In this document: positions 13,052 to 40,492 of the stretch, piece after piece
How positions within the stretch are numbered: the first letter of the stretch is position 1
How the letters are laid out: every line of letters starts with the position of its first letter
Source of the DNA: Bacillota bacterium
GTDB lineage: Bacteria; Bacillota; Dethiobacteria; DTU022
Assembly (NCBI GenBank): GCA_019428945.1
Contig: JAHYJM010000005.1
Coordinates: forward strand, 1,562-65,561
Direction: 5' to 3'
Length of the DNA stretch: 64,000 bases
The notes under the pieces: generated by a model
What the model was told of the DNA's origin: nothing
The model's database searches: none
What the model saw: the letters and a program-made list of their open reading frames with translations, nothing else
Position numbers and translations under genes: made by a program

Positions 13052-13054
13052 AAT

Positions 13055-16134: not shown

Positions 16135-16147
16135 AAATAGTCCAGTT

Positions 16148-16182: not shown

Positions 16183-16301
16183 TTTAATGTAGTAATAAAA
16201 ACGAATATTTGTTATAATTCTATATGAATTTCGGTATCTTTCTGTCACTTCCTGTAGGCTGAAGTTTAGAATCATAAATAGTGGTTTTCAAATCTCTTTA
16301 A

Positions 16302-16580
16302 ATGAGAGGAGAAGATATATTGTCGCGGGTTGTAAATACTGAAATAACTGCTGACCTTCTAATTAACCAGGATTGGTGTAAGGGGTGCGGCATCTGTATT
16401 GCTTTCTGTCCAAGGGAAGCTCTTTTTTTAGATGAAAAGGGAAAAGCAGAAAAAAATAATGAGAAGTGTACCTGTTGTGGAATTTGCGAAACATTTTGCC
16501 CTGATTTTGCACTGACTGTAGTAAAGAGGAGGCTTTCAGCAGATGGCGGAGACAAAGCCGGTTTTAATGCAAGGCAATGA
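16302..16580 (+). CDS. korD: 2-oxoacid:ferredoxin oxidoreductase delta subunit (2x[4Fe-4S] ferredoxin)
   Basis: Two CxxCxxCxxxCP motifs (CKGCGICIAFCP, CTCCGICETFCP). The true start is probably TTG near 16320, after the RBS GAGAGGAGAAG. The 3' end overlaps korA. Confidence 0.75.
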   Translation: MRGEDILSRVVNTEITADLLINQDWCKGCGICIAFCPREALFLDEKGKAEKNNEKCTCCGICETFCPDFALTVVKRRLSADGGDKAGFNARQ

Positions 16581-17670
16581 AGCCTGTGCTGAAGGTGCGA
16601 TCAGCGCCGGTGTAAGATTTTATGCCGGCTATCCGATAACACCATCAACAGAAATAGCCGAGCACATGGCAGCAAGATTGCCTGATCTCGGCGGTGTTTT
16701 TATCCAGATGGAAGATGAAATAGCCAGTATGGCTGCCGTGATTGGCGCCTCTATCGGTGGAATGCGAACCCTGACTGCAACAAGTGGTCCGGGATTTTCT
16801 TTGAAACAGGAGAATCTCGGCTATGCAATCATGGCTGAAATTCCCTGTGTTGTTGTTAATGTTCAGCGTATGGGACCAAGCACCGGAGTCCCGACAGCGC
16901 CGGCCCAGGGAGATGTTATGCAGGCCCGCTGGGGCACTCATGGTGATCACCCTATTATCGTTTTTTCACCGGCCTCTGTCTATGAAACTTTTTATCTTAC
17001 CATTGCTGCTGTCAACCTCAGCCAGAAGTTAAGGCAGCCGGTTATTATGCTGCTCGATGAAGTTATAGGGCATATGCGCGAAAAAGTGATGATTCCGGAG
17101 GCCGGTAAACTATTGGTGGAAAAATCTAGTGATAATATTCCTGCCGATTGGAAGCCTTATGACGAGAAGGGGTTGACTCCCCTGGTACCCTTTGGTTTTG
17201 GCCATTATTATCATGTAACCGGACTTTTCCATGACCAGTATGGTTTTCCCACAGGTGATCCGACCCAGGTTGAAAGAGCCCTGGACAGAATTCATGGTAA
17301 GCTGGAAAAGTATCGTGATGAAATAGTTCTAACCAACTACATCGGTCACAAGGAGCCCCGTGTTGTGATTATAACTTATGGTTGTACGGTCAGATCAGCC
17401 CGTGCTGTGGTTAAAAAAGCTTACTGGCAGAACCGTTTGCCGGTGGGACTGCTCAGTTTGCAGACAATTTGGCCTTTCCCCGGGAAAGAAGTTGCTGCTA
17501 TAGCAAAACAGGCAGATGTGATTATTGTGCCTGAAATGAACATGGGACAAATAGTCGGTGAAGTAGAAAGGTACGCCTGCGGTAATGCCGAGGTTGTGCC
17601 CCTTAACCGGTATGACGGAGAAATGATGTCTCCCGATCAAATATCCGAACTGTTAGGAAGGTGGCTGTAA
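16543..17670 (+). CDS. korA: 2-oxoacid (2-oxoglutarate/pyruvate-type):ferredoxin oxidoreductase alpha subunit
   Basis: N-terminus LMQGNEACAEGAISAGVRFYAGYPITPSTEI is typical of KorA/PorA. Confidence 0.85.
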   Translation: MAETKPVLMQGNEACAEGAISAGVRFYAGYPITPSTEIAEHMAARLPDLGGVFIQMEDEIASMAAVIGASIGGMRTLTATSGPGFSLKQENLGYAIMAEIPCVVVNVQRMGPSTGVPTAPAQGDVMQARWGTHGDHPIIVFSPASVYETFYLTIAAVNLSQKLRQPVIMLLDEVIGHMREKVMIPEAGKLLVEKSSDNIPADWKPYDEKGLTPLVPFGFGHYYHVTGLFHDQYGFPTGDPTQVERALDRIHGKLEKYRDEIVLTNYIGHKEPRVVIITYGCTVRSARAVVKKAYWQNRLPVGLLSLQTIWPFPGKEVAAIAKQADVIIVPEMNMGQIVGEVERYACGNAEVVPLNRYDGEMMSPDQISELLGRWL

Positions 17671-18476
17671 TGGAACAGCTGACCCAGGATTATTTACGCA
17701 CAAAAAAATTGCCTCATATCTGGTGTCCCGGTTGTGGAAACGGGATAGTTACTGCTGCGCTTGTAAGGGCTATTGAGCGTACCGGCTATGACCAGAGCGA
17801 GGTAGTGATTGTATCAGGAATTGGCTGTTCATCCAGGGCGGCCGGTTATTTAAATTTCAACACACTGCATACAACTCATGGCAGAGCGCTTGCATTTGCA
17901 ACCGGTTTGAAAATGGCCAGACCTGAACTGAAGCTCTTTGTTATCATGGGTGACGGAGACTGCAGTGCCATAGGCGGTAATCACTTTATTCATGCTGCAA
18001 GAAGGAATATCGATCTTAATGCAGTAATAATCAATAACCATATTTACGGGATGACAGGGGGACAGCATTCACCCTTAACCCCGACGGGTATGAAGGCAAC
18101 CACCGCTCCCGGCGGCACACTTGAGAGAGCCTTTGACCTGCTTGAACTGGCAAGGGGAGCCGGAGCTACTTTTGGAGCCCGTGGTAACGCTGCCCAGCCG
18201 CGACAGCTGGAACAGCTCATACTAAGGGCTGCCAATCATAAAGGATTTTCAGTTCTTGAAGCGCTTTCTCCCTGTCCGATTGCTTACGGCAGGCGCAATA
18301 AACTTGGCGGGGCAGTTGAGATGCTTCGTGAAATGAAAGACAGCGCTGTTTCGATGGAGAAAGCTTCAGGTATGGAGCCGGAAGAGCTGGAAGGTAAGAC
18401 CTTAAGCGGCGTCATATTCTCAACCGAAGCCCCGGAATTTTCGGAAGAATATTACCGGTCAATCGGCAAGGCGTAA
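17661..18476 (+). CDS. korB: 2-oxoacid:ferredoxin oxidoreductase beta subunit (TPP-binding)
   Basis: WCPGCGNG and the TPP motif GDGDCSAIGGNH. Confidence 0.85.
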   Translation: MAVMEQLTQDYLRTKKLPHIWCPGCGNGIVTAALVRAIERTGYDQSEVVIVSGIGCSSRAAGYLNFNTLHTTHGRALAFATGLKMARPELKLFVIMGDGDCSAIGGNHFIHAARRNIDLNAVIINNHIYGMTGGQHSPLTPTGMKATTAPGGTLERAFDLLELARGAGATFGARGNAAQPRQLEQLILRAANHKGFSVLEALSPCPIAYGRRNKLGGAVEMLREMKDSAVSMEKASGMEPEELEGKTLSGVIFSTEAPEFSEEYYRSIGKA

Positions 18477-18492
18477 AGCGGGAGGTAATTAT

Positions 18493-19071
18493 TTGAGTAA
18501 CAGGCAGGAAATTTTATTAACCGGAGCAGGCGGGCAGGGACTTATTCTCGCTTCAATCGTCCTGGCTGAAGCTGCGGTTAACGACAATAAAAATGTTGTA
18601 CAAACCCAGTCTTACGGCCCTGAAGCCCGTGGCGGGGCCAGTATGGCCGGGGTAATAATTGATGTTGATACAATCGAATATCCGAAGGTCACCAAACCTT
18701 CTGTGCTGCTCTGTATGAACCAGGCTTCATTTAACAAATATATTCCCAAGGTTGAACCGGGTTGTACTATCATCGTTGATTCAACATTTGTCAGCGGCCC
18801 TTACCGCGAAGATTATAAAATAAATGCTCTGCCTATTACGCAGGCCGCAAGAGAACAGCTGGGGCGCGAGGTTGTTGCCAACATGCTTGCTCTGGGCGCT
18901 ATTAATGCCGCCACAGGCCTGGTTGATCGGGAAATTTTCAGAGAAAGCATTTTTAAGTTAGCGCCCAAGGGAAGTGGTGAGCTCAATCAAAAGGCTTTTG
19001 ACCTGGGTTACCGACTCTATAATGAGGGTATGGGGCAGAATCTCGGAATATCTTCTCAAACCCCTCAATAA
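18493..19071 (+). CDS. korG: 2-oxoacid:ferredoxin oxidoreductase gamma subunit
   Basis: 192 aa. ILLTGAGGQGLILAS is the gamma-subunit N-terminus. Confidence 0.85.
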   Translation: MSNRQEILLTGAGGQGLILASIVLAEAAVNDNKNVVQTQSYGPEARGGASMAGVIIDVDTIEYPKVTKPSVLLCMNQASFNKYIPKVEPGCTIIVDSTFVSGPYREDYKINALPITQAAREQLGREVVANMLALGAINAATGLVDREIFRESIFKLAPKGSGELNQKAFDLGYRLYNEGMGQNLGISSQTPQ

Positions 19072-25607: not shown

Positions 25608-26933
25608 ATGGGCAGCGCGGTCTTTAAAGGAGGCGTTCATCCGGACTATCATAAAGAGATAACAGCGACTATGGCTGTATCGAAGATGAAAGCCCCTTCT
25701 ACAGTAGTAATTCCTCTGCAACAGCATATTGGCGCACCCTGTGAACCTCTCGAAGGAATCGAAGAAGGTGTCCGAGTTAAAATGGGGCAAAAAATTGCCG
25801 ACAGTAGTGGTTTTGTTTCCGCTCCCATCCATGCAAGTGTATCGGGTACAATTAAAGCCATCGGCCCGTACAATCATCCCCTCGGACGTCCGGTTAATGC
25901 GATTACGATTGAGTCGGATGGACAGGAAGAGTGGGATGAGAAAGTTAAACCGGCAGGTAATCTGGAGAACCTTACCCCGGATGATCTACGCAAAATCATT
26001 CGTGAAGCCGGAATTGTCGGCTTGGGCGGAGCCACCTTCCCGGCTCATGTCAAGTTGTCGCCACCACCGGAGAAAAAAATTGATTATGTAGTTATCAACG
26101 GCGCTGAGTGTGAACCGTACCTGACAGCGGATCACCGGGTTATGCTTGAAAATCCTGAAGAAATAATCTTCGGTCTAAAAGTGATGATCAAAGCGTTGGG
26201 TGCCGAGAAAGGCGTGATCGGTATTGAAGACAATAAAGCCGATGCAATCAGGGTTATGGAGCAGGCAGTTGCCGGTGAAGATAACATAACAGTAGCCCAT
26301 TTGCATACCAAATACCCCCAGGGCGCTGAAAAAATGCTGATCCAGGTTACAACCGGGCGTATAGTACCTTCCGGCGGCCTTCCTCTTGATATAGGTGTTG
26401 TAAACCATAACGTGGGGACAGCCGTTGCCATAACAAGCACTATACGCGAAGGTAAGCCTTTAATTGAAAGAGTTGTTACAGTTACAGGTTCTGGAATCAA
26501 TAAACCGGCAAATCTTCTGGTAAAGGTGGGAACACTGGTTTCAGAAGTGCTTGATGTCTGCGGTGGTTTAAAGGAAGATACCAGAAAGCTGATCACTGGC
26601 GGCCCGATGATGGGTCTGGCCCAGCCAAATACTGATATTCCGGTGATTAAAGGTACCTCCGGAATTCTCGCCCTGACCGACCAGGATGTATATATTGCAG
26701 AAAGCAGTCCCTGTATCCGCTGTGCCAAATGTGTGGAGGCTTGTCCGGTTCAACTGCTGCCTACATCTATAGCGCAGGCAGCCGAGCATGACCTGTTTAA
26801 AAAAGCCGAAAAACTCCATGCCATGGATTGTTTTGAGTGTGGCTGCTGTTCATATGTTTGTCCTTCAAAAATACCTTTAACTCAGTTAATAAGAATTGCC
26901 AAAGCGGAAATAGCGAAAGCGAATAAAAAGTAG
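25608..26933 (+). CDS. rnfC: Rnf complex subunit C (NADH-binding, 2x[4Fe-4S])
   Basis: GGVHPDYHKE N-terminus and the C-terminal ferredoxin motifs CIRCAKCVEACP, CFECGCCSYVCP. Confidence 0.9.
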   Translation: MGSAVFKGGVHPDYHKEITATMAVSKMKAPSTVVIPLQQHIGAPCEPLEGIEEGVRVKMGQKIADSSGFVSAPIHASVSGTIKAIGPYNHPLGRPVNAITIESDGQEEWDEKVKPAGNLENLTPDDLRKIIREAGIVGLGGATFPAHVKLSPPPEKKIDYVVINGAECEPYLTADHRVMLENPEEIIFGLKVMIKALGAEKGVIGIEDNKADAIRVMEQAVAGEDNITVAHLHTKYPQGAEKMLIQVTTGRIVPSGGLPLDIGVVNHNVGTAVAITSTIREGKPLIERVVTVTGSGINKPANLLVKVGTLVSEVLDVCGGLKEDTRKLITGGPMMGLAQPNTDIPVIKGTSGILALTDQDVYIAESSPCIRCAKCVEACPVQLLPTSIAQAAEHDLFKKAEKLHAMDCFECGCCSYVCPSKIPLTQLIRIAKAEIAKANKK

Positions 26934-26964
26934 CCTGCTTTGCAAGGGAGGGAAGTGATAGATA

Positions 26965-27930
26965 ATGGATAACAAAATGGTAGTTTCATCTTCTCCGCAT
27001 ATCAGGAGCCTTGAATCAGTTCAAAGTGTTATGATTGATGTTCTGATAGCCTTGTTTCCCGCTGCCCTGATGGCAGTGCTCCTATTTGGATACAAGGCTT
27101 TGATAACCATGATTATATCTGTGGTAACAGCAATGCTTGTAGAAGCTCTTTGGTTACGGAAGCGTGATATATTTAGCGACGGCAGCGCCGCAGTCACAGG
27201 CCTTCTGTTCGCCATGGTTCTGCCGCCAGCACCGCCGTGGTGGCTGGTAGTTGTAGGTGTGGCCTCGGCGATTATAATCGGCAAACAGGTTTTCGGCGGT
27301 ATCGGTTACAATATCTTTAACCCTGCCCTGGTTGGCAGAGCGGTTGTTGTAATGTCCTGGGGTGGTTATCTGGTTGGGCGAGTATGGTCGCAGCCGCAGC
27401 CTTTTGCCTTAACGGCAGATATTTCTGCTATAACTACGGCGACTCCGCTCGGAGGGCAGGAAGAAGCTCTCGCGGTTAGCCTGACAAACCTCTTTATAGG
27501 CAATGTGGCCGGATGCCTCGGTGAAACATCAACCCTGGCGCTTCTGCTCGGCGCTGCATGGCTCTATTACAAGGGGCATATCGATCTGCGTATACCCGGG
27601 GGATTTATTGGTGTCGTATTCATAATGGGCGCTATCTTCGGTGGAGGTTTTTACGGTGGAGCTCTGACAACAGGTCTTTTCCATGTATTGGCGGGAGGCG
27701 TAATGCTTGGTGCGCTATTCATGGCTACCGACATGGTTACAACGCCAGTTACAGCCAAGGGCAAATTAATATTTGGTATTGGTTGCGGAATTATTACAAT
27801 GATGATCAGGTTGTGGGGCACCTTGCCTGAAGGTGTTACCTTTGCCATATTATTAATGAATGCTGTAACCCCGATTATCGATAACTTTACAGTGCCACAA
27901 CAGTTTGGGGGGGTGAAGAAGAGTGCGTAA
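26965..27930 (+). CDS. rnfD: Rnf complex subunit D (NqrB-like membrane subunit)
   Basis: SSPHIRS N-terminus, polytopic membrane protein, and the flavinylation-region motif TGATPLG-like. Confidence 0.9.
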   Translation: MDNKMVVSSSPHIRSLESVQSVMIDVLIALFPAALMAVLLFGYKALITMIISVVTAMLVEALWLRKRDIFSDGSAAVTGLLFAMVLPPAPPWWLVVVGVASAIIIGKQVFGGIGYNIFNPALVGRAVVVMSWGGYLVGRVWSQPQPFALTADISAITTATPLGGQEEALAVSLTNLFIGNVAGCLGETSTLALLLGAAWLYYKGHIDLRIPGGFIGVVFIMGAIFGGGFYGGALTTGLFHVLAGGVMLGALFMATDMVTTPVTAKGKLIFGIGCGIITMMIRLWGTLPEGVTFAILLMNAVTPIIDNFTVPQQFGGVKKSA

Positions 27931-29071
27931 TATTATAAAACTGTCTGTTACTCTTGCTGTAGTCGGTATTATATCTGCCGCTCTTCTGACCGGTGTGTAT
28001 AATGTTACCGCTCCGATCATTGCCGAACGGCAGGAAGCGGAATACAGGCAAGCCCTGGAACTTTATTTTCCCGGCTTCGCCAGCTATGACAGCGAAGAAA
28101 TTGGCGATGATTACTTTGATTTAATCTACGATGGTTCTGATGAACTGATTGGCATTATGGGCACGATTGAGCAGCAGGGTTATGATGGAACGATAACTTA
28201 TAACCTGGCCATGGACGATTCGGGTTCAATAATCGGAGTCAGGGTTGTATCCCACTCTGAAACTCCGGGTATCGGTGACGTAATCACCACTGAAGTTTTT
28301 CAGGAACAGTTTTTCGGTAAGAACTATGAAGATCCTATCGTAGCCGGCGATGATGTTAATGCAATTACCGGCGCTACAGTCAGCAGTTCTGCAATGATAA
28401 ATTCAATCAGGCGGGTTAGCGGAGTGGTTGCGGAGAACTTCCTGGGCGTTGAATCAGTTGCGATTGATATCTCTGAAGTACCGGATGGAACTTACCAGGG
28501 ATCAGCTCCCGGCCTTGGCGGCGAATTGACTGTTGAGGTTGAGGTTTCCGATGGAGTAATTGTCAGTATTGAGGTTATTGAACACAATGAAACGCCTACT
28601 TATTTTATTGAAGCATACCCCTTTATACCTGAACAGATTATTGCTGAACAGCATTTTGATATAGATACCCAAACAGGCGCTACCATCAGTTCTGAAGCAA
28701 TAATCGAGGCTGTTCAGAATGCCCTTCGTGAGGCTCTCGGCATCGAGGTCGGAGAAGAACCGGAAGAAGAGCCTGTTGATATAAATATCAGCGAAATCCC
28801 CGACGGAATCTACGTCGGCAGTGGTGAAGGTTTTTATGGTCCGATTACTGTTGAAGTCGAAGTTGCGGGTGGGCAGATAGTCAGTATAGTGATAACCGGG
28901 CAGGATGAAACTCCGGAATATTTCAGGGAGTCGAATCCGCTGATTCCGGAACGGATAATTGAGGAACAAAGTCTTGATATCGATACAAGCACCGGAGCAA
29001 CTTTTAGCGCCAAAGGTATTGTGCAGGCTGTTCTAAACGCTCTGGACAGTGAAAGTGGAGGTGAAGACTGA
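27923..29071 (+). CDS. rnfG: Rnf complex subunit G with three FMN-binding (FMN_bind) domains
   Basis: N-terminal membrane anchor plus an RnfG core ending in the flavinylation motif NAITGATVSS. Two additional ~100-aa repeats follow, each with T[QS]TGAT[IF]S. The protein is 382 aa against a typical ~200 aa. Confidence 0.85.
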   Translation: MRNIIKLSVTLAVVGIISAALLTGVYNVTAPIIAERQEAEYRQALELYFPGFASYDSEEIGDDYFDLIYDGSDELIGIMGTIEQQGYDGTITYNLAMDDSGSIIGVRVVSHSETPGIGDVITTEVFQEQFFGKNYEDPIVAGDDVNAITGATVSSSAMINSIRRVSGVVAENFLGVESVAIDISEVPDGTYQGSAPGLGGELTVEVEVSDGVIVSIEVIEHNETPTYFIEAYPFIPEQIIAEQHFDIDTQTGATISSEAIIEAVQNALREALGIEVGEEPEEEPVDINISEIPDGIYVGSGEGFYGPITVEVEVAGGQIVSIVITGQDETPEYFRESNPLIPERIIEEQSLDIDTSTGATFSAKGIVQAVLNALDSESGGED

Positions 29072-29702
29072 TATGAAAGCAACTAGTCCTTATATGCAGG
29101 ACCTCACCCGGGGTATAATTAAAGAGAATCCGGTCTTTATTGCCCTGCTGGGTATGTGCCCCACACTCGGGGTCACAGCATTTATTGTTAACGGTGTCGG
29201 TATGGGGCTTGCGGCAACAGCTGTATTAATTGCTTCTAACCTGGTAATTTCCCTGTTGCGCAACTTTATACCCCCACAGGTGCGCATACCCTGCTTTATC
29301 GTGATTATCGCCACTTTTGTTACTATAATTGAAATGGTCCTGCAGGCTTTTCAACCTGTATTGTACGAAGCACTTGGCGTGTTTGTACCGTTAATTGTCG
29401 TTAACTGTATCATTTTGGGCAGAGCTGAAGCATTTGCCAGCAAAAGGCCGGTAATACGATCTCTATTAGATGGCATTGGCATGGGGATCGGATTTACCCT
29501 TGCCCTTTTTATTTTAGCAGCAGTACGTGAAATACTCGGTCATGGAACTATTCTTGGCCCCGACCCGGATAGCGCCATCCATCTTTTTGGGGCAAATTTT
29601 GAACCGATGGCTCTTTTTGCTCAGCCTGCAGGTGCGTTCATTGCCCTGGGGCTACTTCTGGCCATTGTGAATTTGCTCTTTAAGCGCTTTAACATTAATT
29701 AG
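29049..29702 (+). CDS. rnfE: Rnf complex subunit E
   Basis: NqrD/RnfE-type sequence (ENPVFIALLGMCPTLGV). The real start is probably ATG 29073. Confidence 0.9.
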   Translation: MKVEVKTDMKATSPYMQDLTRGIIKENPVFIALLGMCPTLGVTAFIVNGVGMGLAATAVLIASNLVISLLRNFIPPQVRIPCFIVIIATFVTIIEMVLQAFQPVLYEALGVFVPLIVVNCIILGRAEAFASKRPVIRSLLDGIGMGIGFTLALFILAAVREILGHGTILGPDPDSAIHLFGANFEPMALFAQPAGAFIALGLLLAIVNLLFKRFNIN

Positions 29703-29746
29703 GTGAATCAGACTGATATGTCTGTTAGCCTGGGCAGGAGGATAAT

Positions 29747-30328
29747 ATGGAAAAGCTGCTTTCAATTATATTTATCTATATTTTTGTAGAAAACTTTGTT
29801 TTGCAGCGATTTTTCGGGATCTGTCCGTTTTTAGGTGTTTCCCGGAAAATGGAAACTGCAATCGGGATGAGCATGGCGGTTGTATTTGTCATGACTATTG
29901 CTACACTTGTGACCTGGTTGCTCTATAATTTTATTTTGGTTCCATTTAACCTGACTTACCTTCAGATAGTAACCTTTATCTTGGTTATAGCGTCGCTGGT
30001 TCAACTTGTAGAGATAGTGCTGCGGAAGATCAGCCCCACTCTTTACCAGGGTTTGGGGATCTTTTTACCGCTAATAACCACCAACTGTGCGGTAATGGCA
30101 GTTGCTCTCCTGGCAGTAAGGCAGGAGTTTTCCCTGTTAGAAGCGGTCGTGTTTGCCATCGCTGCATCTATAGGTTTCTCTTTGGCCCTTATTATTATGG
30201 CCGGAATCAGGGAACGACTCGAATTAGCCAAGATGCCCGATGTATTACAGGGATCTGCAGTGACGTTGGTTACTGCCGGTATATTGTCACTGGCATTTTT
30301 AGGGTTTAAGGGAATGTTGACTTTATAG
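29747..30328 (+). CDS. rnfA: Rnf complex subunit A
   Basis: NqrE/RnfA-type sequence, 193 aa, six transmembrane helices. Confidence 0.9.
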   Translation: MEKLLSIIFIYIFVENFVLQRFFGICPFLGVSRKMETAIGMSMAVVFVMTIATLVTWLLYNFILVPFNLTYLQIVTFILVIASLVQLVEIVLRKISPTLYQGLGIFLPLITTNCAVMAVALLAVRQEFSLLEAVVFAIAASIGFSLALIIMAGIRERLELAKMPDVLQGSAVTLVTAGILSLAFLGFKGMLTL

Positions 30329-30365
30329 AGACATTCTTTGATATAATTTACTATTCTTATGCGAG

Positions 30366-31232
30366 GTGAATTTAACCGTGCTAATAATATATGCAATAGC
30401 TGCATTAGGTGTAATCGGCCTCCTCTTTGGTCTTTTCCTCGGTGTGGCAGCCCGTTTTTTTGCAGTAGACACCGACCCGCGTGTTGAAGCCGTAAAAGAG
30501 GAATTACCGGGAGCTAACTGCGGCGCCTGTGGTTATGCCGGGTGTGCAAACTTTGCTGAAGCAGTAGTAAGCGGTGAAGCAAAAGTCAATGGCTGTATCC
30601 CGGGAGGAGATGAAACCTCTAAAGCAATTGCAGGCTTATTGGGACAGGAAGTCGGAAGTTCTGTTCAGCCGGTGGCTACTGTCTTTTGCATCGGGGACAG
30701 CTTCAAAACCAGTGATAAGTTTATTTATGACGGTGTAGCTGATTGTGAGGTGGCTGGTAACTTCCTTGGTGGATTTAAAACATGCAGTTATGGTTGCCTG
30801 GGATATGGCAACTGTGTGAAAGCCTGTCTATTTGATGCAATAAAAATGGGTGAGCACGGACTGCCTGTTGTTGATACAGAGAAATGTACCGGCTGCGGGT
30901 TATGCGCAAATGCCTGCCCGAGAACTATCATTAAGATGCTTCCCAGGGGCGATAGCGGCTATCTGGTTCTGTGCAACTCACATGATCGGGGTAAGTCAGT
31001 ATCCAAAGCCTGTGAAGTCGGCTGTATAGCCTGCAAGGCATGTGTGAAGGTTTGCCCGGAAGAGGCTATAGTGATGGAGGATAATCTGGCCGTGATAGAT
31101 CTGGAAAAATGCACCGACTGCGGCAAGTGCGCCGAAAAATGCCCTCCTGTGACGATATACAGGCGCAACGCCATTCCTACGGAGGCGCAGGCGCTTGCCT
31201 ATGCCGCGGAAAAATCAGCAGAGTCGGCCTAG
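30366..31232 (+). CDS. rnfB: Rnf complex subunit B (polyferredoxin)
   Basis: N-terminal anchor plus multiple Cys clusters (CTGCGLCANACP, CIACKACVKVCP, CTDCGKCAEKCP). Confidence 0.9.
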   Translation: MNLTVLIIYAIAALGVIGLLFGLFLGVAARFFAVDTDPRVEAVKEELPGANCGACGYAGCANFAEAVVSGEAKVNGCIPGGDETSKAIAGLLGQEVGSSVQPVATVFCIGDSFKTSDKFIYDGVADCEVAGNFLGGFKTCSYGCLGYGNCVKACLFDAIKMGEHGLPVVDTEKCTGCGLCANACPRTIIKMLPRGDSGYLVLCNSHDRGKSVSKACEVGCIACKACVKVCPEEAIVMEDNLAVIDLEKCTDCGKCAEKCPPVTIYRRNAIPTEAQALAYAAEKSAESA

Positions 31233-31351
31233 TTCGGATCTGTCTTTTACGGCAGGATTTAGTTTAGGCCTTTGCTGAAGCAATAACAACTGTTACAGGC
31301 AGGTTTTGAGCGATCATAAACCGAATTTGTAACATGCAGACAAGATAATGA

Positions 31352-31402
31352 CTGAAGCGGGATCAAGTTCAAAATGTGATCTATTCCCGCTTCAGCTTTA
31401 TT
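31352..31402 (+). terminator. Candidate intrinsic terminator/attenuator between rnfB and the antiporter module
   Basis: CTGAAGCGGGA / TCCCGCTTCAG is an 11-bp stem with a 22-nt loop, followed by CTTTATT. Confidence 0.4.
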
Positions 31403-31485
31403 GGGAGTCGTCTACAGTAATAATGGCATTAGGAAAGAATTATCTCTCAAATCTCCTGATTCTAACTACCGAGGTGGAGATAAAC

Positions 31486-31977
31486 ATGAACAGGCAGTGG
31501 TTAAACTACATTGGTATAACACTAATTCTATTGGTTTTCTGGATAGCTGTTAGTGGCTCCCTTAGTTGGCCGCAGCTTGTCGTTGGCCTGGCAACGGCTA
31601 TCTTTGTAACTTATTTTAATCGTAATTTACTGATCACTGCTGAAGAAAGACCGCCAATTCGGCTGCGAACTATAATCTGGTTATTTGGTTATCTTTTTCA
31701 GCTGCTTTGGGCGATTGTGATTGCTAATTTTCATGTGGCCTGGATAGTAATGCATCCTAAAATGCCGATTGAGCCAAACCTTGTCTCGCTGGAGGTTGAT
31801 ATCGATAGAGTATCGAGTCGTGTATTGCTTGCAAATTCCATTACCCTTACTCCCGGAACACTGACAGTACTTGCCGATGAAAAGAAATTTCTTGTTCATG
31901 CCCTGACAGTTTCAAGCGGAGAAGATCTTAAAGAATGGAGTTTAATTGACCGAATCAGGGAAATGGAGGAGGCCTGA
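31486..31977 (+). CDS. mrpE: Mrp/Mbh-type antiporter small subunit E (MnhE/MbhA-like)
   Basis: ATG 31486 with RBS GAGGTGGAG. The membrane N-terminus plus a soluble C-terminus is typical of MnhE. It is the first gene of a run in MbhA-H-like order. Confidence 0.7.
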   Translation: MNRQWLNYIGITLILLVFWIAVSGSLSWPQLVVGLATAIFVTYFNRNLLITAEERPPIRLRTIIWLFGYLFQLLWAIVIANFHVAWIVMHPKMPIEPNLVSLEVDIDRVSSRVLLANSITLTPGTLTVLADEKKFLVHALTVSSGEDLKEWSLIDRIREMEEA

Positions 31978-31979
31978 TC

Positions 31980-32261
31980 ATGAATATCTCTCAGATCCTT
32001 GATTTTTCGTACAACCTGGGCGCTATTCTGGTCATGCTGATGATCTTTCTTTCGCTGATCAGGGCGTTAAAAGGGCCGACTGCTCCTGACAGGGTTGCGG
32101 CAATCAATATCATCGGCACAAAAACTGTTGTTATTATTACCCTGATTGCCCGGATCTATGAACAGATTTACTTTTTGGATGTAGCTATGGTTTATGCCCT
32201 GATGAGCTTTATTACTACTGTAGGTGTGGCCAAATACCTTGAGAAGGGAGCTCTTGACTGA
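31980..32261 (+). CDS. mrpF: Mrp/Mbh-type antiporter subunit F (MnhF)
   Basis: 93 aa, three transmembrane helices, MnhF-like. Confidence 0.7.
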   Translation: MNISQILDFSYNLGAILVMLMIFLSLIRALKGPTAPDRVAAINIIGTKTVVIITLIARIYEQIYFLDVAMVYALMSFITTVGVAKYLEKGALD

Positions 32262-32592
32262 TATTAATCACCTGATAGAACCATTATTTGATTTAATATC
32301 ACTGATCAGCCTGATCGGGGGTCTCTTTTTTCTCTTTGTAGGAACGGTAGGGCTCCTGAGACTTCCTGATGTTTTTAACAGGCTGCATGCTACAACCAAA
32401 TGCGATACTTTAGGGGCAGGGTTGGTTCTTCTCTCTCTTGCTGTGCAGAGCACCCCTGCGACTGGTATAAGGCTTGCCCTGATTATTATTTTTATAATCG
32501 TTACTAACCCGACGGCAGCACATGTTATAGCGCGGGCAGCATATAAAACAGGTATTAAACCGCTTACCGGCAGGAGGTTATCTGATGACTGA
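32224..32592 (+). CDS. mrpG: Mrp/Mbh-type antiporter subunit G (MnhG)
   Basis: The MnhG-like sequence includes LRLPDVFNRLHATTKCDTLGAG. The start is probably TTG ~32254. Confidence 0.7.
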   Translation: MWPNTLRRELLTDINHLIEPLFDLISLISLIGGLFFLFVGTVGLLRLPDVFNRLHATTKCDTLGAGLVLLSLAVQSTPATGIRLALIIIFIIVTNPTAAHVIARAAYKTGIKPLTGRRLSDD

Positions 32593-32824
32593 TATTCTAA
32601 ATATACTCCTCCTTTTATTTTTGATCGTATGTGCCGTTGGTGTCGCTCATATTCGAGACCTGCTAAGCGCGGTAATCCTCTTTTCTGCTTTCGGTTTAAT
32701 AATGGCTATAATTTGGCAGCAGCTCGGCGCTCCCGACATTGCCATGGTTGAAGCTGCTCTCGGAACCGGTGTGGCAGCGCTTCTGCTTATTGCTGCGATA
32801 AGCAAAACTAAGCGCGCTGAATAA
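32585..32824 (+). CDS. Small membrane subunit, DUF4040/MbhD-like (MnhB N-terminal-half homologue)
   Basis: 79 aa, two to three transmembrane helices. Its position after G matches MbhD in Mbh/Mbx-type operons. Confidence 0.5.
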   Translation: MTDILNILLLLFLIVCAVGVAHIRDLLSAVILFSAFGLIMAIIWQQLGAPDIAMVEAALGTGVAALLLIAAISKTKRAE

Positions 32825-32847
32825 CTTTAAGCCGGGAGGTAACCTGA

Positions 32848-33192
32848 ATGTCCTACATCCTTATACTATTTTTAGTCATACTGGCTATATTTTTACGTTT
32901 TGTGATAGGGGTAGAGCTGAGAAGCATCCTGACCATATACCTTCTTGGTTTAATTGTGTACCTCTTTAGCTTTACTGTGGCAGAGATGCCTCCCTTTGGC
33001 AGACCTGATAATCCGGCTTTCAATGAAGTTCCTGCTCGCTATCTTGAAGCAGGCCCCTCCGAAACAGGGGCAATTAATATTATAAGCAGCGTAATTACAG
33101 ATTACAGGGCTTTTGACACCCTTGGTGAAGCGACTGTTCTTTTTGTGGCTATAGCTGCTGCCGTTGCAACTCTCAAATCGCACCGATATTAA
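32848..33192 (+). CDS. MnhB-domain small membrane subunit (MbhE-like)
   Basis: The ITDYRAFDTLGE motif is characteristic of MnhB-related domains. Confidence 0.6.
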   Translation: MSYILILFLVILAIFLRFVIGVELRSILTIYLLGLIVYLFSFTVAEMPPFGRPDNPAFNEVPARYLEAGPSETGAINIISSVITDYRAFDTLGEATVLFVAIAAAVATLKSHRY

Positions 33193-33201
33193 AAGGGGGA
33201 G

Positions 33202-33660
33202 ATGATGTTGGAAGATCAAATTGTCCGGATAACCAGCCGACTGGTAGCCCCTTTTATTCAGGTTTACGGTATATATGTTATTCTGCATGGACACCTCTCG
33301 CCCGGTGGTGGTTTTTCAGGCGGGGCAATTTTCGGAGCAAGCCTGGTTTTAATTGCGCTTTCATTTAATCTTGAAGCCGGGGTAAAACAGATATCACACC
33401 AGACAGCATCTGTTTTAGAGAGCGGCGGCGCTCTCGGTTTTACTGTAACCGGCCTGATTGCGATCGCGCTCGGGGGTAATTATCTTGCGAACCGTGCGGC
33501 CGGTTTTCCACTCGGTGAAGCAGGACAGTTTTTCAGTTCAGGAGCAATTATGGTTATAACTGTTTTTGTCGGGATTAAAGTTGCAAGTACCATTACAACT
33601 CTTTTTTACAATATTATTGAGAAGGAGACCCCTCATGGAAACAGTAAGCAGGCTGACTGA
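33202..33660 (+). CDS. MnhB/MrpB-like membrane subunit (MbhF-like)
   Basis: HGHLSPGGGFSGGAIFG is the MrpB-core signature. Confidence 0.6.
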   Translation: MMLEDQIVRITSRLVAPFIQVYGIYVILHGHLSPGGGFSGGAIFGASLVLIALSFNLEAGVKQISHQTASVLESGGALGFTVTGLIAIALGGNYLANRAAGFPLGEAGQFFSSGAIMVITVFVGIKVASTITTLFYNIIEKETPHGNSKQAD

Positions 33661-34003
33661 AAACTATTTTTATCTCGTGGCGATTATTTTATTCGTGATA
33701 GGTACCCACACTATGCTTACTCATTCCAACATGATCAAAAAAGTCATTGCTATGAATATCATGGATAGTTCAGTTTTCCTGCTCTTTGTTGCCATCGGTT
33801 ACACTCACGGCGCTCAAGCCCCTATCATCAGAGATGGTGCTGATATAGTCTATGCGAATCCGCTTCCCGGAGCGCTGATTGTTACCGGTATAGTTGTGGC
33901 TGTCAGTGTAACGGCTTATGCACTGAGCATCATTGTCAAAATCCAGAGAAGTTACGGAACCATTGATTGTGATGAAATTTGTGAGTTAAGGAGCGATGAT
34001 TAG
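33635..34003 (+). CDS. mrpC: Mrp/Mbh antiporter subunit C (NuoK-like)
   Basis: ATG 33635 with RBS GAGAAGGAGA. The NuoK/MnhC-like sequence includes MNIMDSSVFLLFVAIGY. Confidence 0.7.
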   Translation: METVSRLTENYFYLVAIILFVIGTHTMLTHSNMIKKVIAMNIMDSSVFLLFVAIGYTHGAQAPIIRDGADIVYANPLPGALIVTGIVVAVSVTAYALSIIVKIQRSYGTIDCDEICELRSDD

Positions 34004-35481
34004 TGGAGTCTGCCGGCCATCAACCGGTCTTAATTATAGTAACACTTCTAATAAGCGCTTTTCTTTCCCCGCTACTTTACCGGTGGAGGAAATTTCTGTC
34101 TGGAATGGTTCTGCTGGCAGCTTTGACAGGAGCTTTTGTTACTGCGCTTACACTTCTCGGTCAGGTAGCCCGCTCCGGCGAGCTCTCATACTACCTGGGC
34201 AACTGGCCTCCTCCCTGGGGGATTGAGCTGGTAATAGATCCACTGCGTGTATATATGCTTCTTGTTGTTACAGGAGTAAGTCTTTGGATTTTTGTTTATG
34301 CACTGCGTGATCTTGAGCATGAACTTCATCATGATGTGATAGGCTGGTATTATTCACTGTATGCTTTGCTTGTTGCTTCTATGTCAGCTATGACCCTGAC
34401 TAATGATTTATTTAACCTTTTTGTCCTGATGGAGATATGTGCAATTTCTGCCTGCGCCATTATTACTATTAAAGACAAGCGGGAATGTTTAGAGGCCGGT
34501 TTTAAATATTTGATCATGAGCGCCATGGGTACGGGCTGTTTTTTACTTGGGGTTGCAATGATTTATATGGTAACAGGCTATCTTAATTTCTCTTTTATTC
34601 AAACAGGACTGGCTGCTGCCCTGTCTGAATATCCTTTAAATATTTTTACAGCCGCAGCACTTTTTATAGTTGCTTTCGGCACTAAAGCAGCTCTCTTTCC
34701 TTTACATGTCTGGCTGCCCGATGCTCATGCTTCTGCTCCATCGCCTTCCAGCGCAATGCTGTCGGGATTGGTTATAAAAATTTATGCCTTTGCTCTTTTT
34801 ATGATATTTTACAGAGTATTCCCCCGCTCGTTGCTTGATGCCATTCCGCTGAATGAAATCATACTCTGGCTTGGCGCGATGGGAGTTATGTTTGGTTCCA
34901 TTTATGCTATGCTGCAGACTGATCTGAAAAAAATGCTTGCATACTCAAGCATTGGGCAGATTGCCTTCATTTTTATGGGCATTGGCCTCGATCAACCACT
35001 GGCTTTGACTGGAGGCCTTTACCATATTATGGTTCATGCTTTTACCAAGTCAATGCTGTTTATGTCAGCCGGTGCGATAATCTATTCTACAGGTGTTCGC
35101 CGCATCAGCGATCTGGCTGGAATTGGAAGAGTATTGCCCATTCCACTGCTGGCGTTTACCATAGGCAGCGCTTCGATGATTGGGCTGCCCGGAACAGGCG
35201 GATTAATAAGCAAATGGTACCTGGCCCTGGGGGCACTAGAAACGGGGCGAATCTTTTTTTTACTGGTTATTCTGGCCAGCAGCCTGCTTAATGCGATCTA
35301 TTACATGCCTATAGTGATCAATGCTTTTATGAGCGGAGATGAGTTTAAAGAAAAAGTAAAAACTGTACCTCCTTCGATGCAGGCCACCCTGGTTGTGGGT
35401 ATTTTGCTTGTAGTGATCAGCGGGATATTTTCCCGACAGATAATTGTTCTATTCGAACAGGCTTTAACATCTTTATATTAA
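34003..35481 (+). CDS. mrpD: Mrp/Mbh antiporter-like large subunit D (NuoN/NuoM family)
   Basis: 492 aa. Antiporter-module motifs are present (LFPLHVWLPDAHASAPSPSSAMLSG). Confidence 0.8.
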   Translation: MESAGHQPVLIIVTLLISAFLSPLLYRWRKFLSGMVLLAALTGAFVTALTLLGQVARSGELSYYLGNWPPPWGIELVIDPLRVYMLLVVTGVSLWIFVYALRDLEHELHHDVIGWYYSLYALLVASMSAMTLTNDLFNLFVLMEICAISACAIITIKDKRECLEAGFKYLIMSAMGTGCFLLGVAMIYMVTGYLNFSFIQTGLAAALSEYPLNIFTAAALFIVAFGTKAALFPLHVWLPDAHASAPSPSSAMLSGLVIKIYAFALFMIFYRVFPRSLLDAIPLNEIILWLGAMGVMFGSIYAMLQTDLKKMLAYSSIGQIAFIFMGIGLDQPLALTGGLYHIMVHAFTKSMLFMSAGAIIYSTGVRRISDLAGIGRVLPIPLLAFTIGSASMIGLPGTGGLISKWYLALGALETGRIFFLLVILASSLLNAIYYMPIVINAFMSGDEFKEKVKTVPPSMQATLVVGILLVVISGIFSRQIIVLFEQALTSLY

Positions 35482-35552
35482 GCAACTATAATATCCGTAT
35501 TTTAGTTGAAATATTCAGGTAATAACCATATAATAAGCTATAACGTGTTAAG

Positions 35553-37088
35553 TTGGGAGTGGTGGTATTGGATCAAGCATCAATCATCATAATCATGGTA
35601 GTAATTGTTGCATTGCCTGTTGTTATGACTCCGGTTCTTATGTATATCTGCCGCATTTCCGACCGATTGCGCAACGGCCTTGCCATTTTAACCGCGGCGG
35701 CAACTTTTATTCTCACCTTATTGCTATATCCCTTCATCCGGGACGGGGGAGTAGTTCAGCAGAGTTTGTTTGAAATTCTGCCTAACCTTGAAATATCAAT
35801 TCATCTCGATATTCTAAGCTTTAGCCTTGCAGCTTTGGCCTCATTCATATGGTTGCTTTGTACCATTTATTCTATTGACTATATGGCCAAGGAGCATGCC
35901 TGCAGCAGATATTATCCGGTCCTTATTTTTACTTTGGGTGCCTGCCAGGGAATATTCTTTGCCGGGGATCTTTTCAGTCTTTTTGTATTCTTTGAACTCA
36001 TGTCTATTATTGCCTATATCCTGATTATTCATGAGCAGACCGAGGAAGCCCTGAAAGCCGGGTATAAATACTTGGTGATGACTATTATCGGCGGTTTGGC
36101 GCTGTTCTTTGGAATTATTATTGTTTTTGAAATCGGCGGCACCGTTTCTCTCGGTGTGGGTGTTATAATCGGTGAACCTTCATTACTGGCCCTAATTGCT
36201 TTTATCTGTTTTCTGATTGGTTTTGGGATGAAGGCCGGAATGTTTCCCTTACATGTCTGGCTGCCTGATGCACACCCTGTTGCTCCCTCGCCGGCCAGCG
36301 CACTGCTTTCCGGAGTGATGCTTAAAACAGGCGCCTACGGTTTAATTCGGGTTGTATTTCATGTCTATTCTGTTGATCTTCTCAGAAGCAGTGGTTGGAA
36401 TAATATCCTGGCGATTCTTGCTGTTATAACCATACTGCTTGGTTCGGCCGTAGCCCTCACGCAGACTGATATAAAACGCCGTCTTGCATATTCCAGTATC
36501 AGCCAGCTCGGTTATGTTTTGCTTGGGCTGAGTATTTTAAACAACAATGCCCTTACAGGAGCAGTCTTTCATATTTTCAGCCACGCTTTTATGAAGAGCG
36601 CACTCTTCCTTGCAGCAGGGGCAATAATATGGAAAACAGGAATTCGCAACATTAATGATATGAAAGGCCTGGGCAGGTTAATGCCCGTTACCATGGGCAG
36701 TTTTTCGTTAGCCGCTCTGGCCATGATCGGTATTCCGCCTCTGAACGGGTTCCTTAGCAAGTGGACCCTTGCCCTTGGCGCTCTTGATGCAGGTATGCCT
36801 GGGTATGTTATGGTTCTTTTAATAAGCAGCCTGCTTAATGCTCTTTACTATCTGCCCATAATAATTCCGGCTTTCTTTGAATCACCTGAAGGCGAAGAGA
36901 TTAATGATCATGGGGATGAGGGAAGCCATGAAGTCTTGTTTAAAATCAAGGAAGCGACTCCGTTGATGCTTTCGGCAATAGTTATTCTTGCCCTCTGTAC
37001 AATATTCTTTGGATTAACGCCAAACAATATTATCTTTTCTTTATCGCGCCTCACGGCCCTGTTTTTACTGGGGGGAGGGTCCTTCTAA
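35553..37088 (+). CDS. Second antiporter-like large subunit (NuoM/MrpD family)
   Basis: 511 aa. Paralogous motifs are present (MFPLHVWLPDAHPVAPSPASALLSG). Confidence 0.8.
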   Translation: MGVVVLDQASIIIIMVVIVALPVVMTPVLMYICRISDRLRNGLAILTAAATFILTLLLYPFIRDGGVVQQSLFEILPNLEISIHLDILSFSLAALASFIWLLCTIYSIDYMAKEHACSRYYPVLIFTLGACQGIFFAGDLFSLFVFFELMSIIAYILIIHEQTEEALKAGYKYLVMTIIGGLALFFGIIIVFEIGGTVSLGVGVIIGEPSLLALIAFICFLIGFGMKAGMFPLHVWLPDAHPVAPSPASALLSGVMLKTGAYGLIRVVFHVYSVDLLRSSGWNNILAILAVITILLGSAVALTQTDIKRRLAYSSISQLGYVLLGLSILNNNALTGAVFHIFSHAFMKSALFLAAGAIIWKTGIRNINDMKGLGRLMPVTMGSFSLAALAMIGIPPLNGFLSKWTLALGALDAGMPGYVMVLLISSLLNALYYLPIIIPAFFESPEGEEINDHGDEGSHEVLFKIKEATPLMLSAIVILALCTIFFGLTPNNIIFSLSRLTALFLLGGGSF

Positions 37089-39368
37089 TTGTTTGCTGCC
37101 GCTCCGGAACTACTTTCCGACCTGAGCCGGGTATACTATTCTTCCCTGCCGCTATGGATTACACTGCTGCCGCTATTAACCGGTATCGGGCTCTATTTTG
37201 TTAAAAACAGCGCGGAGACTCTCCGTAAGGTTGTTTCTTTGCTGGCCTCGCTTGCTGTACTGGTCGGAGTGATGCTGTTATTGCCGATGGTATTGTCAGG
37301 GACAGTTAAGTATGATCTGATCGATTTTATGCAAATGGGTCTATTTTTTGAAGTTGACCTGGTTGGCTGGATTTTTGCTTTTCTGATAGCCTTTATCTGG
37401 TCTTTAGCCACGCTGTTTTCATTTGCCTATATGGATTTCGAGCACAATAGACGCCGCTATTACAGTGTATTGATTTTTACGCTCGGAGCTACCCTGGGCG
37501 TGGTTCTAGCCGGTGACTTTTTTACACTTTTCCTGTTCTTTGAAATGATGACTCTTTCATCCTTTATTCTGGTTATTCATGAACAGAATCGCGAGGCTAT
37601 GCAGGCAGGTATTCTGTACCTTTATCTCGGTATAGCCGGAGGCCTGGCGCTGCTTTTTGCCATCATGATGCTTTATTCAGCCACGGGAACTGTAAATATA
37701 GTGCCTGTGCTGGAAGACCTGGGCGCCAATCGAACCTTAATTTATATCATGTTTTTGATTGGCTTTGGAGTTAAAGCCGGACTTGTTCCGCTGCACATCT
37801 GGCTGCCTCAGGCTCATCCTGTTGCTCCTTCCCCGGCAAGCGCACTTCTTTCCGGTATAATGATCAAAGCCGGCGCTTACGGTATTTTTAGAGTATCTCT
37901 TATACTCTTTACCTCACCTGGCGAAATCGGTGCAGCAGATGCTTCATACCTTTTTAATGTAGGATCTGTATTGATGTGGATTGGTATCATCACCATGCTG
38001 TCCGGAGCGATAATGGCCCTTCTGCAGAGCAATATGAAAAGGATCCTGGCTTACAGCAGCGTCAGCCAGATCGGTTATATCGCAACCGGGCTTGGCGCTG
38101 CAGTCTTTATGGGCACTGAAGGCGCAATGGGATTTGCCGGTGCCATCTATCACATAATTAATCATGCTTTTTTCAAGGCAGGTCTCTTTATGATGGTTGG
38201 TACAATTTATCTCTATACGCATGAACTGGAATTGTCTAAGCTTGGTGGTATGTTTAAAAAAATGCCCCTGGTTGGTATCACATTTATTATTGCAGCCTTC
38301 GGTATTGCCGGTATTCCGGGCTTTAACGGATATCCCAGCAAAACTCTGATCCATGATGCTTTACTGATTGCCATTAAATTTAATGATCTTTTTAGCATTG
38401 AACTGGCTGAAAAAATATTTACGCTAACCAGCGCACTGACAATCTGCTACTTTATTAAGCTTTTCAGAGGGGTATTCTTAGGACCTGTTCCTGAAAAGCT
38501 CGATCGTGAATATAAACTGGCCCTGTCAATAAAGGCGGTATTAACCACATTTGCAGCGATCATTGTTGCTATTGGCTTATTCCCGAATTTTATTCTTGAA
38601 CGTTTTCTGGTACCTCCTGCCGAGTTTTTAAAATATGAAGGTTATGCCATGGATCATCTTTATCACTTCAATTTTTTTGAATGGCATCCTGTCGAAGCAA
38701 TGCTTGTTGTTATTATTCTGGCAGTGGTCATTTATTTGCCGGGAGCTTATCGAAACTGGTTTTCCTGGCAGCCGCCCCCCTGGCTCAGTATTTACGCTCT
38801 CCTTTACCGGCCCCTGACACATCGTCTCATGATTCTCACCTGTAAAGCCGGGCTAATTCTTGACTCGTCGGTTGATAATGCTTACAATCAATCAGGCAGT
38901 GCAGCACGGAATATGTGTGATTATGTGGGCAACATCGATCATGGTCTGGACAGTTTTTATCATAAGTGGGGGTTGATCGGCAGTAAGTTGGCGGAACGTT
39001 CCAGAGATATGGATCAGAAACTGGACGGTTTCTATCAAAGATCAGGTCAAGCAGCCAGGAAGCTTGCCGATAAATCAGCTGATATGGACTCAGCTCTAGA
39101 TAAAGCATATCAGAAAACCGGAAAAGCCGCTCAGAATTTAGCTAAACAGTCATCAGATCTTGATAAAGCGATAAATGTCGTATATGATCAGGCCGGTAAA
39201 AAAACCAGGGATGAAGTGGAAAAGCGGCTGGCAGGGAAACAAGAAAAACATGATAAAGCAGAGAGTGATAAATGGAGCACCAAGAATTTGAGTTTTGATA
39301 ATCTGCTTCTTGTCCTTGTTCTCGGTATAGTACTTTTTATTATCTTCTACTTCGGGAGATCATCATAA
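37089..39368 (+). CDS. mrpA: Antiporter-like large subunit (NuoL/MrpA family) with a ~190-aa C-terminal repeat extension and terminal transmembrane anchor
   Basis: 759 aa. The core is LVPLHIWLPQAHPVAPSPASALLSG. The tail holds 5 tandem ~25-aa repeats of the form [FAV]Y[QHD]xxGxxAxxLAxxSxDxDxxL, followed by the hydrophobic LLLVLVLGIVLFIIFYF. Confidence 0.8.
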   Translation: MFAAAPELLSDLSRVYYSSLPLWITLLPLLTGIGLYFVKNSAETLRKVVSLLASLAVLVGVMLLLPMVLSGTVKYDLIDFMQMGLFFEVDLVGWIFAFLIAFIWSLATLFSFAYMDFEHNRRRYYSVLIFTLGATLGVVLAGDFFTLFLFFEMMTLSSFILVIHEQNREAMQAGILYLYLGIAGGLALLFAIMMLYSATGTVNIVPVLEDLGANRTLIYIMFLIGFGVKAGLVPLHIWLPQAHPVAPSPASALLSGIMIKAGAYGIFRVSLILFTSPGEIGAADASYLFNVGSVLMWIGIITMLSGAIMALLQSNMKRILAYSSVSQIGYIATGLGAAVFMGTEGAMGFAGAIYHIINHAFFKAGLFMMVGTIYLYTHELELSKLGGMFKKMPLVGITFIIAAFGIAGIPGFNGYPSKTLIHDALLIAIKFNDLFSIELAEKIFTLTSALTICYFIKLFRGVFLGPVPEKLDREYKLALSIKAVLTTFAAIIVAIGLFPNFILERFLVPPAEFLKYEGYAMDHLYHFNFFEWHPVEAMLVVIILAVVIYLPGAYRNWFSWQPPPWLSIYALLYRPLTHRLMILTCKAGLILDSSVDNAYNQSGSAARNMCDYVGNIDHGLDSFYHKWGLIGSKLAERSRDMDQKLDGFYQRSGQAARKLADKSADMDSALDKAYQKTGKAAQNLAKQSSDLDKAINVVYDQAGKKTRDEVEKRLAGKQEKHDKAESDKWSTKNLSFDNLLLVLVLGIVLFIIFYFGRSS
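38876..39240 (+). repeat. Five diverged tandem 75-nt (25-codon) coding repeats in the mrpA-like C-terminal region
   Basis: At DNA level, GATATGGATCAGAAACTGGACGGTTTCTATCAAAGATCAGG resembles GATATGGACTCAGCTCTAGATAAAGCATATCAGAAAACCGG. At protein level, the matching repeats are FYQRSGQAARKLADKSADMD and AYQKTGKAAQNLAKQSSDLD. Confidence 0.6.
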
Positions 39369-40454: not shown

Positions 40455-40492
40455 TTGATGCGGGAAGCTCATATACAACGGAAGGAATAAAT

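Follow-up and report, generated by a model that had tools for sequence, protein, structure and literature searches.

What could subunit G of an Rnf ion pump, a protein that in characterized complexes carries a single flavin, do with three? The question is posed by rnfG, a gene within a 64,000-nucleotide (nt) stretch of contig JAHYJM010000005.1 from a Bacillota bacterium (hereafter, the window). Its product departs from the canonical class, for it has 382 amino acids (aa) and three FMN_bind domains, compared with one domain and ~190–240 aa. That this three-domain architecture is real is as good as certain to us. What the two additional domains do has to be weighed among several readings, and our preferred one is that they form a flavin relay branching off the pump.

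Domain architecture of RnfG

The gene and its parts are the following.

27923–29071, plus strand: rnfG, 382 aa, GTG start; core RnfG followed by two additional FMN_bind domains
27923–28066, plus strand: N-terminal transmembrane anchor and linker helix of RnfG (aa 1–48), with the hydrophobic segment LSVTLAVVGIISAALLTGV
28178–28414, plus strand: D1, the FMN_bind domain of the RnfG core (aa 86–164 by Pfam); TGAT at 149–152, predicted acceptor T152 (codon 28376–28378)
28451–28735, plus strand: D2, the first extra FMN_bind domain (aa 177–271); TGAT at 251–254, predicted acceptor T254 (codon 28682–28684)
28736–28768, plus strand: D2–D3 linker, acidic and rich in Glu and Pro (LGIEVGEEPEEE)
28769–29056, plus strand: D3, the second extra FMN_bind domain (aa 283–378); TGAT at 357–360, predicted acceptor T360 (codon 29000–29002)

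The coordinates of this open reading frame (ORF) are as an initial annotation of the window had given them. The GTG start is preceded by the purine-rich GGGGGGTGA, and the frame overlaps the stop of rnfD by 8 nt. The profile PF04205 (FMN_bind) matches the whole protein in three stretches (E=4.1e-49), and when the pieces are scanned singly each one alone exceeds the gathering cut-off of 22 bits: aa 1–175 with 60.5 bits (E=2.5e-16), aa 176–278 with 65.7 bits (E=6.2e-18) and aa 281–382 with 54.3 bits (E=2.1e-14). The C-terminal repeats are FMN_bind domains, as that annotation had proposed. It had also noted that every domain retains the [ST]GAT motif, which is found, in the contexts it quoted, with starts at aa 149, 251 and 357. 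The last residues of these motifs, T152, T254 and T360, are the predicted acceptors of flavin mononucleotide (FMN).

The first 175 aa constitute a normal RnfG, recognized by TIGR01947 over aa 9–165 with 111 bits (cut-off 102). Solved RnfG chains measure 189–237 aa and the TIGR01947 profile has 187 positions, in line with the ~200 aa put forward earlier as the usual size. Given the length of the solved chains, the additional ~200 aa of the present protein constitute a genuine extension. Among solved proteins, the Clostridium tetanomorphum RnfG (7zc6_G, E=5.9e-12) comes closest to the core, ahead of the chains of A. vinelandii and A. woodii. The N-terminal hydrophobic helix is homologous to the known RnfG anchor, its segment aligning with the N-terminus of 7zc6_G, and the core TGAT (149–152) aligns with ITGAT of that chain. 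By analogy with the solved Rnf structures, RnfG should face outward. The annotation had likewise described it as the outward-facing subunit, with which a membrane-anchored RnfG encoded in a complete Rnf operon agrees.

The extra domains resemble another kind of protein. D2 finds its closest solved relative in 8p2b, domain 1 of CbFMN4 (E=1.9e-12). D2 and D3 are 56% identical to one another in protein sequence; their identity to D1 is 27–35%, and to 8p2b it is 41–42% in the Foldseek comparison (target template modelling (TM) score 0.87, root-mean-square deviation 1.4–1.6 Å). Their likeness to a free-standing multi-flavin protein thus exceeds their likeness to the RnfG core. The simplest history would be the fusion of a free-standing flavin module to RnfG, with tandem duplications and losses thereafter. 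The composition of the whole protein is extremely acidic (70 Asp+Glu and 12 Lys+Arg), and D2 alone has 19 acidic residues and one basic residue.

Two single-chain AlphaFold models, one of the full-length protein and one of its soluble part (aa 49–382), provide insight on the arrangement of the domains. The mean predicted local distance difference test score (pLDDT) is 77.6 for the former and 79.7 for the latter, and the predicted TM scores (pTM) are 0.56 and 0.52. Both models are confident for the individual domains and lack confidence for their overall arrangement. A long N-terminal helix (aa 2–48) leads into a beta-rich alpha/beta domain, and the top Foldseek matches in the PDB are the RnfG chains 7zc6_G, 8rb8_G and 9eri_G (target TM 0.62–0.65). 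The linker between D2 and D3 (GEEPEEEP) falls below a pLDDT of 50 at aa 277–284 in the full-length model and at aa 278–283 in the second one, and aa 273–284 hold six acidic residues (Asp+Glu) with no Lys or Arg. At the D1–D2 junction the pLDDT is ~80. The models suggest that D1 and D2 are the more defined pair and that D3 is flexibly tethered, in agreement with the "beads-on-a-string" models of multi-flavinylated proteins (Huang et al. 2024). The annotation had pictured three covalent flavins as an extended extracytoplasmic wire. Such a wire is plausible and agrees with a published proposal, but the low global AlphaFold confidence and the disordered D2–D3 linker favor tethered beads, or a relay, over a fixed wire; the wire is probably flexible.

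Conservation of the additional domains

A search of 5.8 billion proteins with RnfG gives 246 relatives at E≤1e-10. The query and the 120 best-scoring 90%-identity cluster representatives from among them make up the homologue set (n=121). In a search of representative sequences the ranking is inflated by the summed scores of repeats, and we do not use it to estimate frequencies. Within the homologue set one extra domain is seen in 69 sequences (~273–285 aa), two in 45 (371–394 aa), three in a single protein (P0002, 490 aa) and four in six (556–571 aa). All 186 of the extra domains and all 121 cores retain the acceptor, a Thr or Ser at the end of the motif. The D2 motif residues T251, G252, A253 and T254 are invariant across 72 homologues, in which L174 and G175 of the D1–D2 junction are also nearly invariant. 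The second extra domain retains its motif in 45 of 45 sequences, if the single variants TGGT, TGAS and SGAT are counted in. In the unsaturated pair L001/L002 the ratio of nonsynonymous to synonymous substitution rates (dN/dS) is 0.08 in D1, 0.04 in D2 and 0.06 in D3. These similarly low values show strong purifying selection on each of the three domains, the extra ones being as constrained as the core.

These data also bear on whether the repeats could have been made by the assembly, or be non-functional copies left by a decaying duplication, a concern that the annotation had itself raised. In favor of such a reading, the public collection has no record of the exact RnfG protein of the window. 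The coding DNA of D2 and D3, however, aligns over 140 nt with an identity of just 65.7%, and Tandem Repeats Finder detects no domain-length repeat. The three-domain layout recurs in 45 of the 121 sequences, and homologues of the same architecture come from independent sources (NCBI, JGI, ENA and Logan assemblies). The flavinylation motifs are invariant or nearly so, and dN/dS of the extra domains lies within 0.04–0.08. The artefact reading is effectively refuted, and we assign it a negligible probability.

The closest genome records are metagenome-assembled genomes (MAGs), as are all named carriers of homologues. Two are labeled "uncultured Syntrophomonadaceae bacterium" (L001 and L002, 73–75% identity) and one "Bacillota bacterium" (L003). 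The gene order valS-folC-rnfCDGEAB-mrp is conserved in relatives whose RnfG proteins differ in domain number: two domains in L003 (285 aa), three in L001 and L002, and four in L005 and L006. In the more distant L008, RnfG has five domains, and the linkage of rnf to mrp is retained with different upstream neighbors. The order rnfCDGEAB itself is found in L001–L003, L005 and L008. A two-domain homologue comes from the MAG "Firmicutes bacterium ML8_F2", a label that we take to stand for Mono Lake; together with the mrp operon, it would hint at a haloalkaline habitat. The lineage is probably a haloalkaliphilic one of uncultured Syntrophomonadaceae-like bacteria.

Two other matches were rejected as RnfG. 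P0122 (1154 aa; L007, 6001–9465) has an RnfG-like N-terminus and nine FMN_bind stretches, and it lies outside any rnf operon. Its neighbors are NusG_II, ApbE and an iron-type transporter (Peripla_BP_2/FecCD/ABC). It is a free-standing multi-flavin protein and may be linked to iron uptake. The match in Anaerococcus tetradius (L004) has no rnf neighbors. An RnfG-like N-terminus with many FMN_bind domains is insufficient for the assignment of a protein as RnfG.

The rnf operon and possible roles of the extra flavins

The setting of rnfG is a complete operon in the order rnfC-D-G-E-A-B (25608–31232), with rnfG between rnfD and rnfE and all six subunits above their NCBIfam cut-offs, followed by an antiporter operon and apbE.

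25608–26933, plus strand: rnfC (TIGR01945, 579 bits; cut-off 246)
26965–27930, plus strand: rnfD (TIGR01946, 306 bits; cut-off 207), with its own predicted flavinylation site ITTATPLG
29073–29702, plus strand: rnfE (TIGR01948, 253 bits; cut-off 213)
29747–30328, plus strand: rnfA (TIGR01943, 265 bits; cut-off 229)
30366–31232, plus strand: rnfB, of the polyferredoxin type (NF005503, 258.5 bits, cut-off 252; TIGR01944, 131 bits, cut-off 69)
31348–39368: mrp Na+/H+ antiporter operon of 8 kb, directly after rnfB
39384–40454, plus strand: apbE, FAD:protein FMN transferase (PF02424, E=1.9e-87)

With rnfB three genes downstream of rnfG, the locus falls under the RNF clusters of Meheust et al. (2021), defined by RnfB in the same flavinylation-associated cluster. 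An alignment of RnfD to the solved RnfD 7zc6_D pairs the TTATPL of the two proteins, and the complex would hold four covalent FMN if every predicted site were used. The annotation had placed apbE in the same locus. The gene is indeed nearby and on the same strand, but it stands outside the rnf operon, 10.3 kb downstream of rnfG and more than five genes beyond it, with the mrp operon between apbE and rnfB. ApbE has an N-terminal membrane anchor (hydrophobic segment YIFLLFTFIIVIIILVY) and is the presumed flavinylating enzyme for both RnfD and RnfG. The genes that follow it are, in order, a PF07456 membrane protein, maf and radC. The first of these (the apbE–PF07456 pair spans 39384–41056) encodes a polytopic protein of the "heptaprenyl diphosphate synthase component I" type, for which no NCBIfam model gives a match. 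PF07456 is, we assume, of the same Pfam clan as the ECF S-components, and the protein could presumably supply flavin to the outer face.

The mrp operon contains MnhE, MrpF, MnhG, MbhD/E-like, MnhB and MnhC proteins and three large antiporter-like subunits (492, 511 and 759 aa). Its linkage to rnf is kept in L001–L003, L005 and L008, even where the identity of RnfG is just 38%, which suggests coupled Na+/H+ cycling. Two listed gene starts are doubtful: for rnfE the ATG at 29073 (209 aa, as in the L005 orthologue) is likelier than the listed GTG at 29049, which overlaps rnfG by 23 nt, and mnhE (31348–31490 region) seems to be listed too early (209 aa compared with 163 aa in relatives) and probably begins at an internal Met. 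A scan for promoters and terminators across rnf-mrp-apbE gives a weak terminator-like hairpin after rnfB (31239–31256) and promoter matches at chance level. The remainder of the window holds housekeeping genes and a ferredoxin-linked cluster for amino-acid catabolism. Located at 9699–19071, a short way upstream of the rnf genes, this ferredoxin-reducing cluster comprises a sigma-54 activator (PAS + AAA), then a class-III aminotransferase, an aldehyde:ferredoxin oxidoreductase, a Glu/Leu/Phe/Val dehydrogenase and a 2-oxoacid:ferredoxin oxidoreductase. A 251-aa ORF on the minus strand (51130–51885), between a gene of the amino-acid-kinase family and obg, has no Pfam match at E≤1e-5.

RnfG is thus the G subunit of a complete Rnf (ferredoxin:NAD+ oxidoreductase) complex, in which the usual module of anchor, linker helix and FMN domain is extended at the C-terminus by two FMN_bind modules like those of the free-standing CbFMN4. 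In the mechanism that we propose, the membrane-anchored ApbE would flavinylate T152, T254 and T360 as well as the Thr of RnfD. On the outer face, D1 would go on carrying electrons from the RnfA/E [2Fe-2S] cluster to the RnfD flavin, or back, as it does in other Rnf complexes. From D1 a short flavin relay would branch off, made of D2 and of D3 on its flexible tether, and it would pass electrons to extracytosolic acceptors or take them from extracytosolic donors. We infer covalent flavinylation at three sites, which we consider likely, together with transfer between the domains and an outside partner, both as to its existence and its identity. For the side branch as the function of D2 and D3 we see the chances as about balanced, if anything a shade short of even.

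Several points weigh against this relay. AlphaFold yields no confident geometry between the domains (pTM 0.52–0.56). The window encodes no partner oxidoreductase, extracytosolic reductase, cytochrome or second FMN_bind protein; rnfG is its sole FMN_bind ORF. A search of the literature returned no flavinylation, redox or transfer experiments on any multi-domain RnfG. RnfG/NqrC is a swinging shuttle that spans the ~35 Å separating the RnfD FMN from the [2Fe-2S] cluster of RnfA/E (2025 RNF/NQR review), so extra C-terminal domains are mechanistically non-trivial: they might hinder the swing rather than extend its reach. Moreover, if electrons could leave at RnfG, the pump would lose part of its coupling.

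The same features can be read in other ways. The extra flavins could act inside the complex, as an electron buffer, as stepping stones over the ~35 Å gap between RnfA/E and RnfD, or in tuning the swing, with the electrons staying on the path from ferredoxin to NAD+. The absence of a partner gene at the locus fits such a role, as does the presence of D2 in 120 of the 120 closest homologues. The conserved D1–D2 junction, with a pLDDT of ~80 unlike the D2–D3 linker, hints at a fixed two-flavin unit, and RnfG shuttling is known as the slow and poorly understood step (2025 RNF/NQR review). A single-domain RnfG suffices, however, in all characterized Rnf and Nqr complexes; a copy number that varies from two to five among syntenic relatives is hard to square with a precise intramolecular geometry, and the extra domains resemble 8p2b more than they do the RnfG core. 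We consider an internal role unlikely. Less credible still is a housekeeping function, in which a trickle of Rnf electrons would serve reductive iron assimilation or the surface detoxification of O2 and other oxidants. Meheust et al. (2021) tie many flavinylation clusters to iron transporters, P0122 with its nine FMN_bind stretches adjoins ApbE and an iron-type ABC transporter, and reduced SaFMN3 reacts with O2 (Tong et al. 2023). But neither here nor in the relatives does an iron transporter adjoin the rnf operon, whose conserved neighbor is mrp, and a cell would pay a high price for burdening its main energy-conserving pump with such a task.

The relay that we prefer can be taken one step further. 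In this lineage Rnf itself could be the cell's gateway for electron transfer to the outside, whether extracellular or directly between species. Electrons from ferredoxin or NADH would leave, or electrons would enter, along two to five covalent RnfG flavins and past no cytochrome, with Na+ still moved and the number of domains setting the reach. We think this improbable, and the tie of the RnfG flavin chain to extracellular or interspecies transfer is speculation. For cultured soda-lake members of the Syntrophomonadaceae, a syntrophic life with direct electron transfer is under discussion. In the draft genome of "Ca. Syntrophonatronum acetioxidans", a soda-lake syntroph of this family, Rnf reportedly has "two genes for subunit G", each with an export signal (PMC6295475); a multi-domain RnfG like the present one, split or mis-called, could account for them. 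If the gateway is real, syntrophs possess a route for extracellular electron transfer that uses flavins alone and is coupled to an ion pump. More generally, if the flavins carry electrons out of or into Rnf, a core ion pump of anaerobes doubles as a cytochrome-free module for extracellular electron transfer, which would bear on electron disposal by syntrophic and alkaliphilic Firmicutes and on the design of flavin-based conduits. The closely related syntenic operons with two, three, four and five domains are a handy comparative set. They bear also on the mechanics of the RnfG/NqrC shuttle, since a shuttle weighted with two to five domains is a natural perturbation series.

Comparison with known flavin and Rnf systems

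The novelty that the initial annotation had implied for a multi-domain RnfG does not hold, as the architecture has been in print since 2021. Surveying 31,910 genomes, Meheust, Huang, Rivera-Lugo, Banfield and Light (2021, eLife 10:e66878, PMC8238504) described "multi-flavinylated RnfGs", for which they put forward a second route that would bring electrons to extracytosolic acceptors. The likeness to the protein described here is close: more than one FMN_bind domain, [S/T]GA[S/T] in each, a place in an rnf cluster and an encoded ApbE. Their description is at the level of a survey, and their text, in its accessible portions, does not discuss the rnf-mrp lineage with two to five domains. The Christensenellales variants described there add a multi-haem cytochrome domain, of which RnfG here has none. 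Neither the 2025 RNF/NQR review nor the 2025 ApbE review mentions a multi-domain RnfG. The present RnfG is a fresh example of an architecture catalogued in 2021 and not a discovery; what it adds is a clade of syntenic rnf-mrp operons, with two to five RnfG flavin domains, in uncultured Syntrophomonadaceae-like bacteria.

With canonical RnfG/NqrC (7ZC6_G of C. tetanomorphum, 9ERI_G of A. woodii, 8RB8_G of A. vinelandii, and NqrC of V. cholerae) the gene shares its position between rnfD and rnfE. The canonical RnfG chains have 189–237 aa and one flavin, whereas RnfG here has 382 aa and three predicted flavin sites. The extra domains have their counterpart in CbFMN4 and SaFMN3 (Tong et al. 2023, BBA Adv; PDB 8P2B and 8P2A), which present the same compact type of FMN_bind domain as D2 and D3, flexible linkers and an N-terminal membrane anchor. 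These proteins differ in being free-standing: they lack the RnfG core and are not described as Rnf subunits. Their linkers are rich in small residues, while that of RnfG is acidic and Pro-rich. Co-expression of SaFMN3 with ApbE gave three covalent FMN on threonines, and CbFMN4 with ApbE was purified as a fluorescent flavoprotein, for which the predicted four FMN were not confirmed by mass spectrometry (Tong et al. 2023).

Two further systems move electrons outward or are proposed to do so. PplA of Listeria is a surface protein whose two FMN_bind domains are flavinylated by ApbE/FmnB, and it passes electrons to outside acceptors. This lipoprotein receives its electrons by way of Ndh2, demethylmenaquinone and EetAB. 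In the present case the domains belong to a subunit of an ion pump linked to ferredoxin and NAD+, to which they are fused, and the N-terminus of RnfG has no lipobox Cys; among the scanned ORFs of the window there is no Listeria-type ndh2, eetA/B, dmkA/B or fmnA/B. The Rnf of Methanosarcina acetivorans with MmcA offers a parallel on the side of the pump, as it too has an extra, outward-facing carrier with several cofactors and a proposed branch to external or membrane acceptors. The carrier there is a separate subunit with c-type haems, whereas here its place would be taken by the predicted covalent flavins of RnfG itself.

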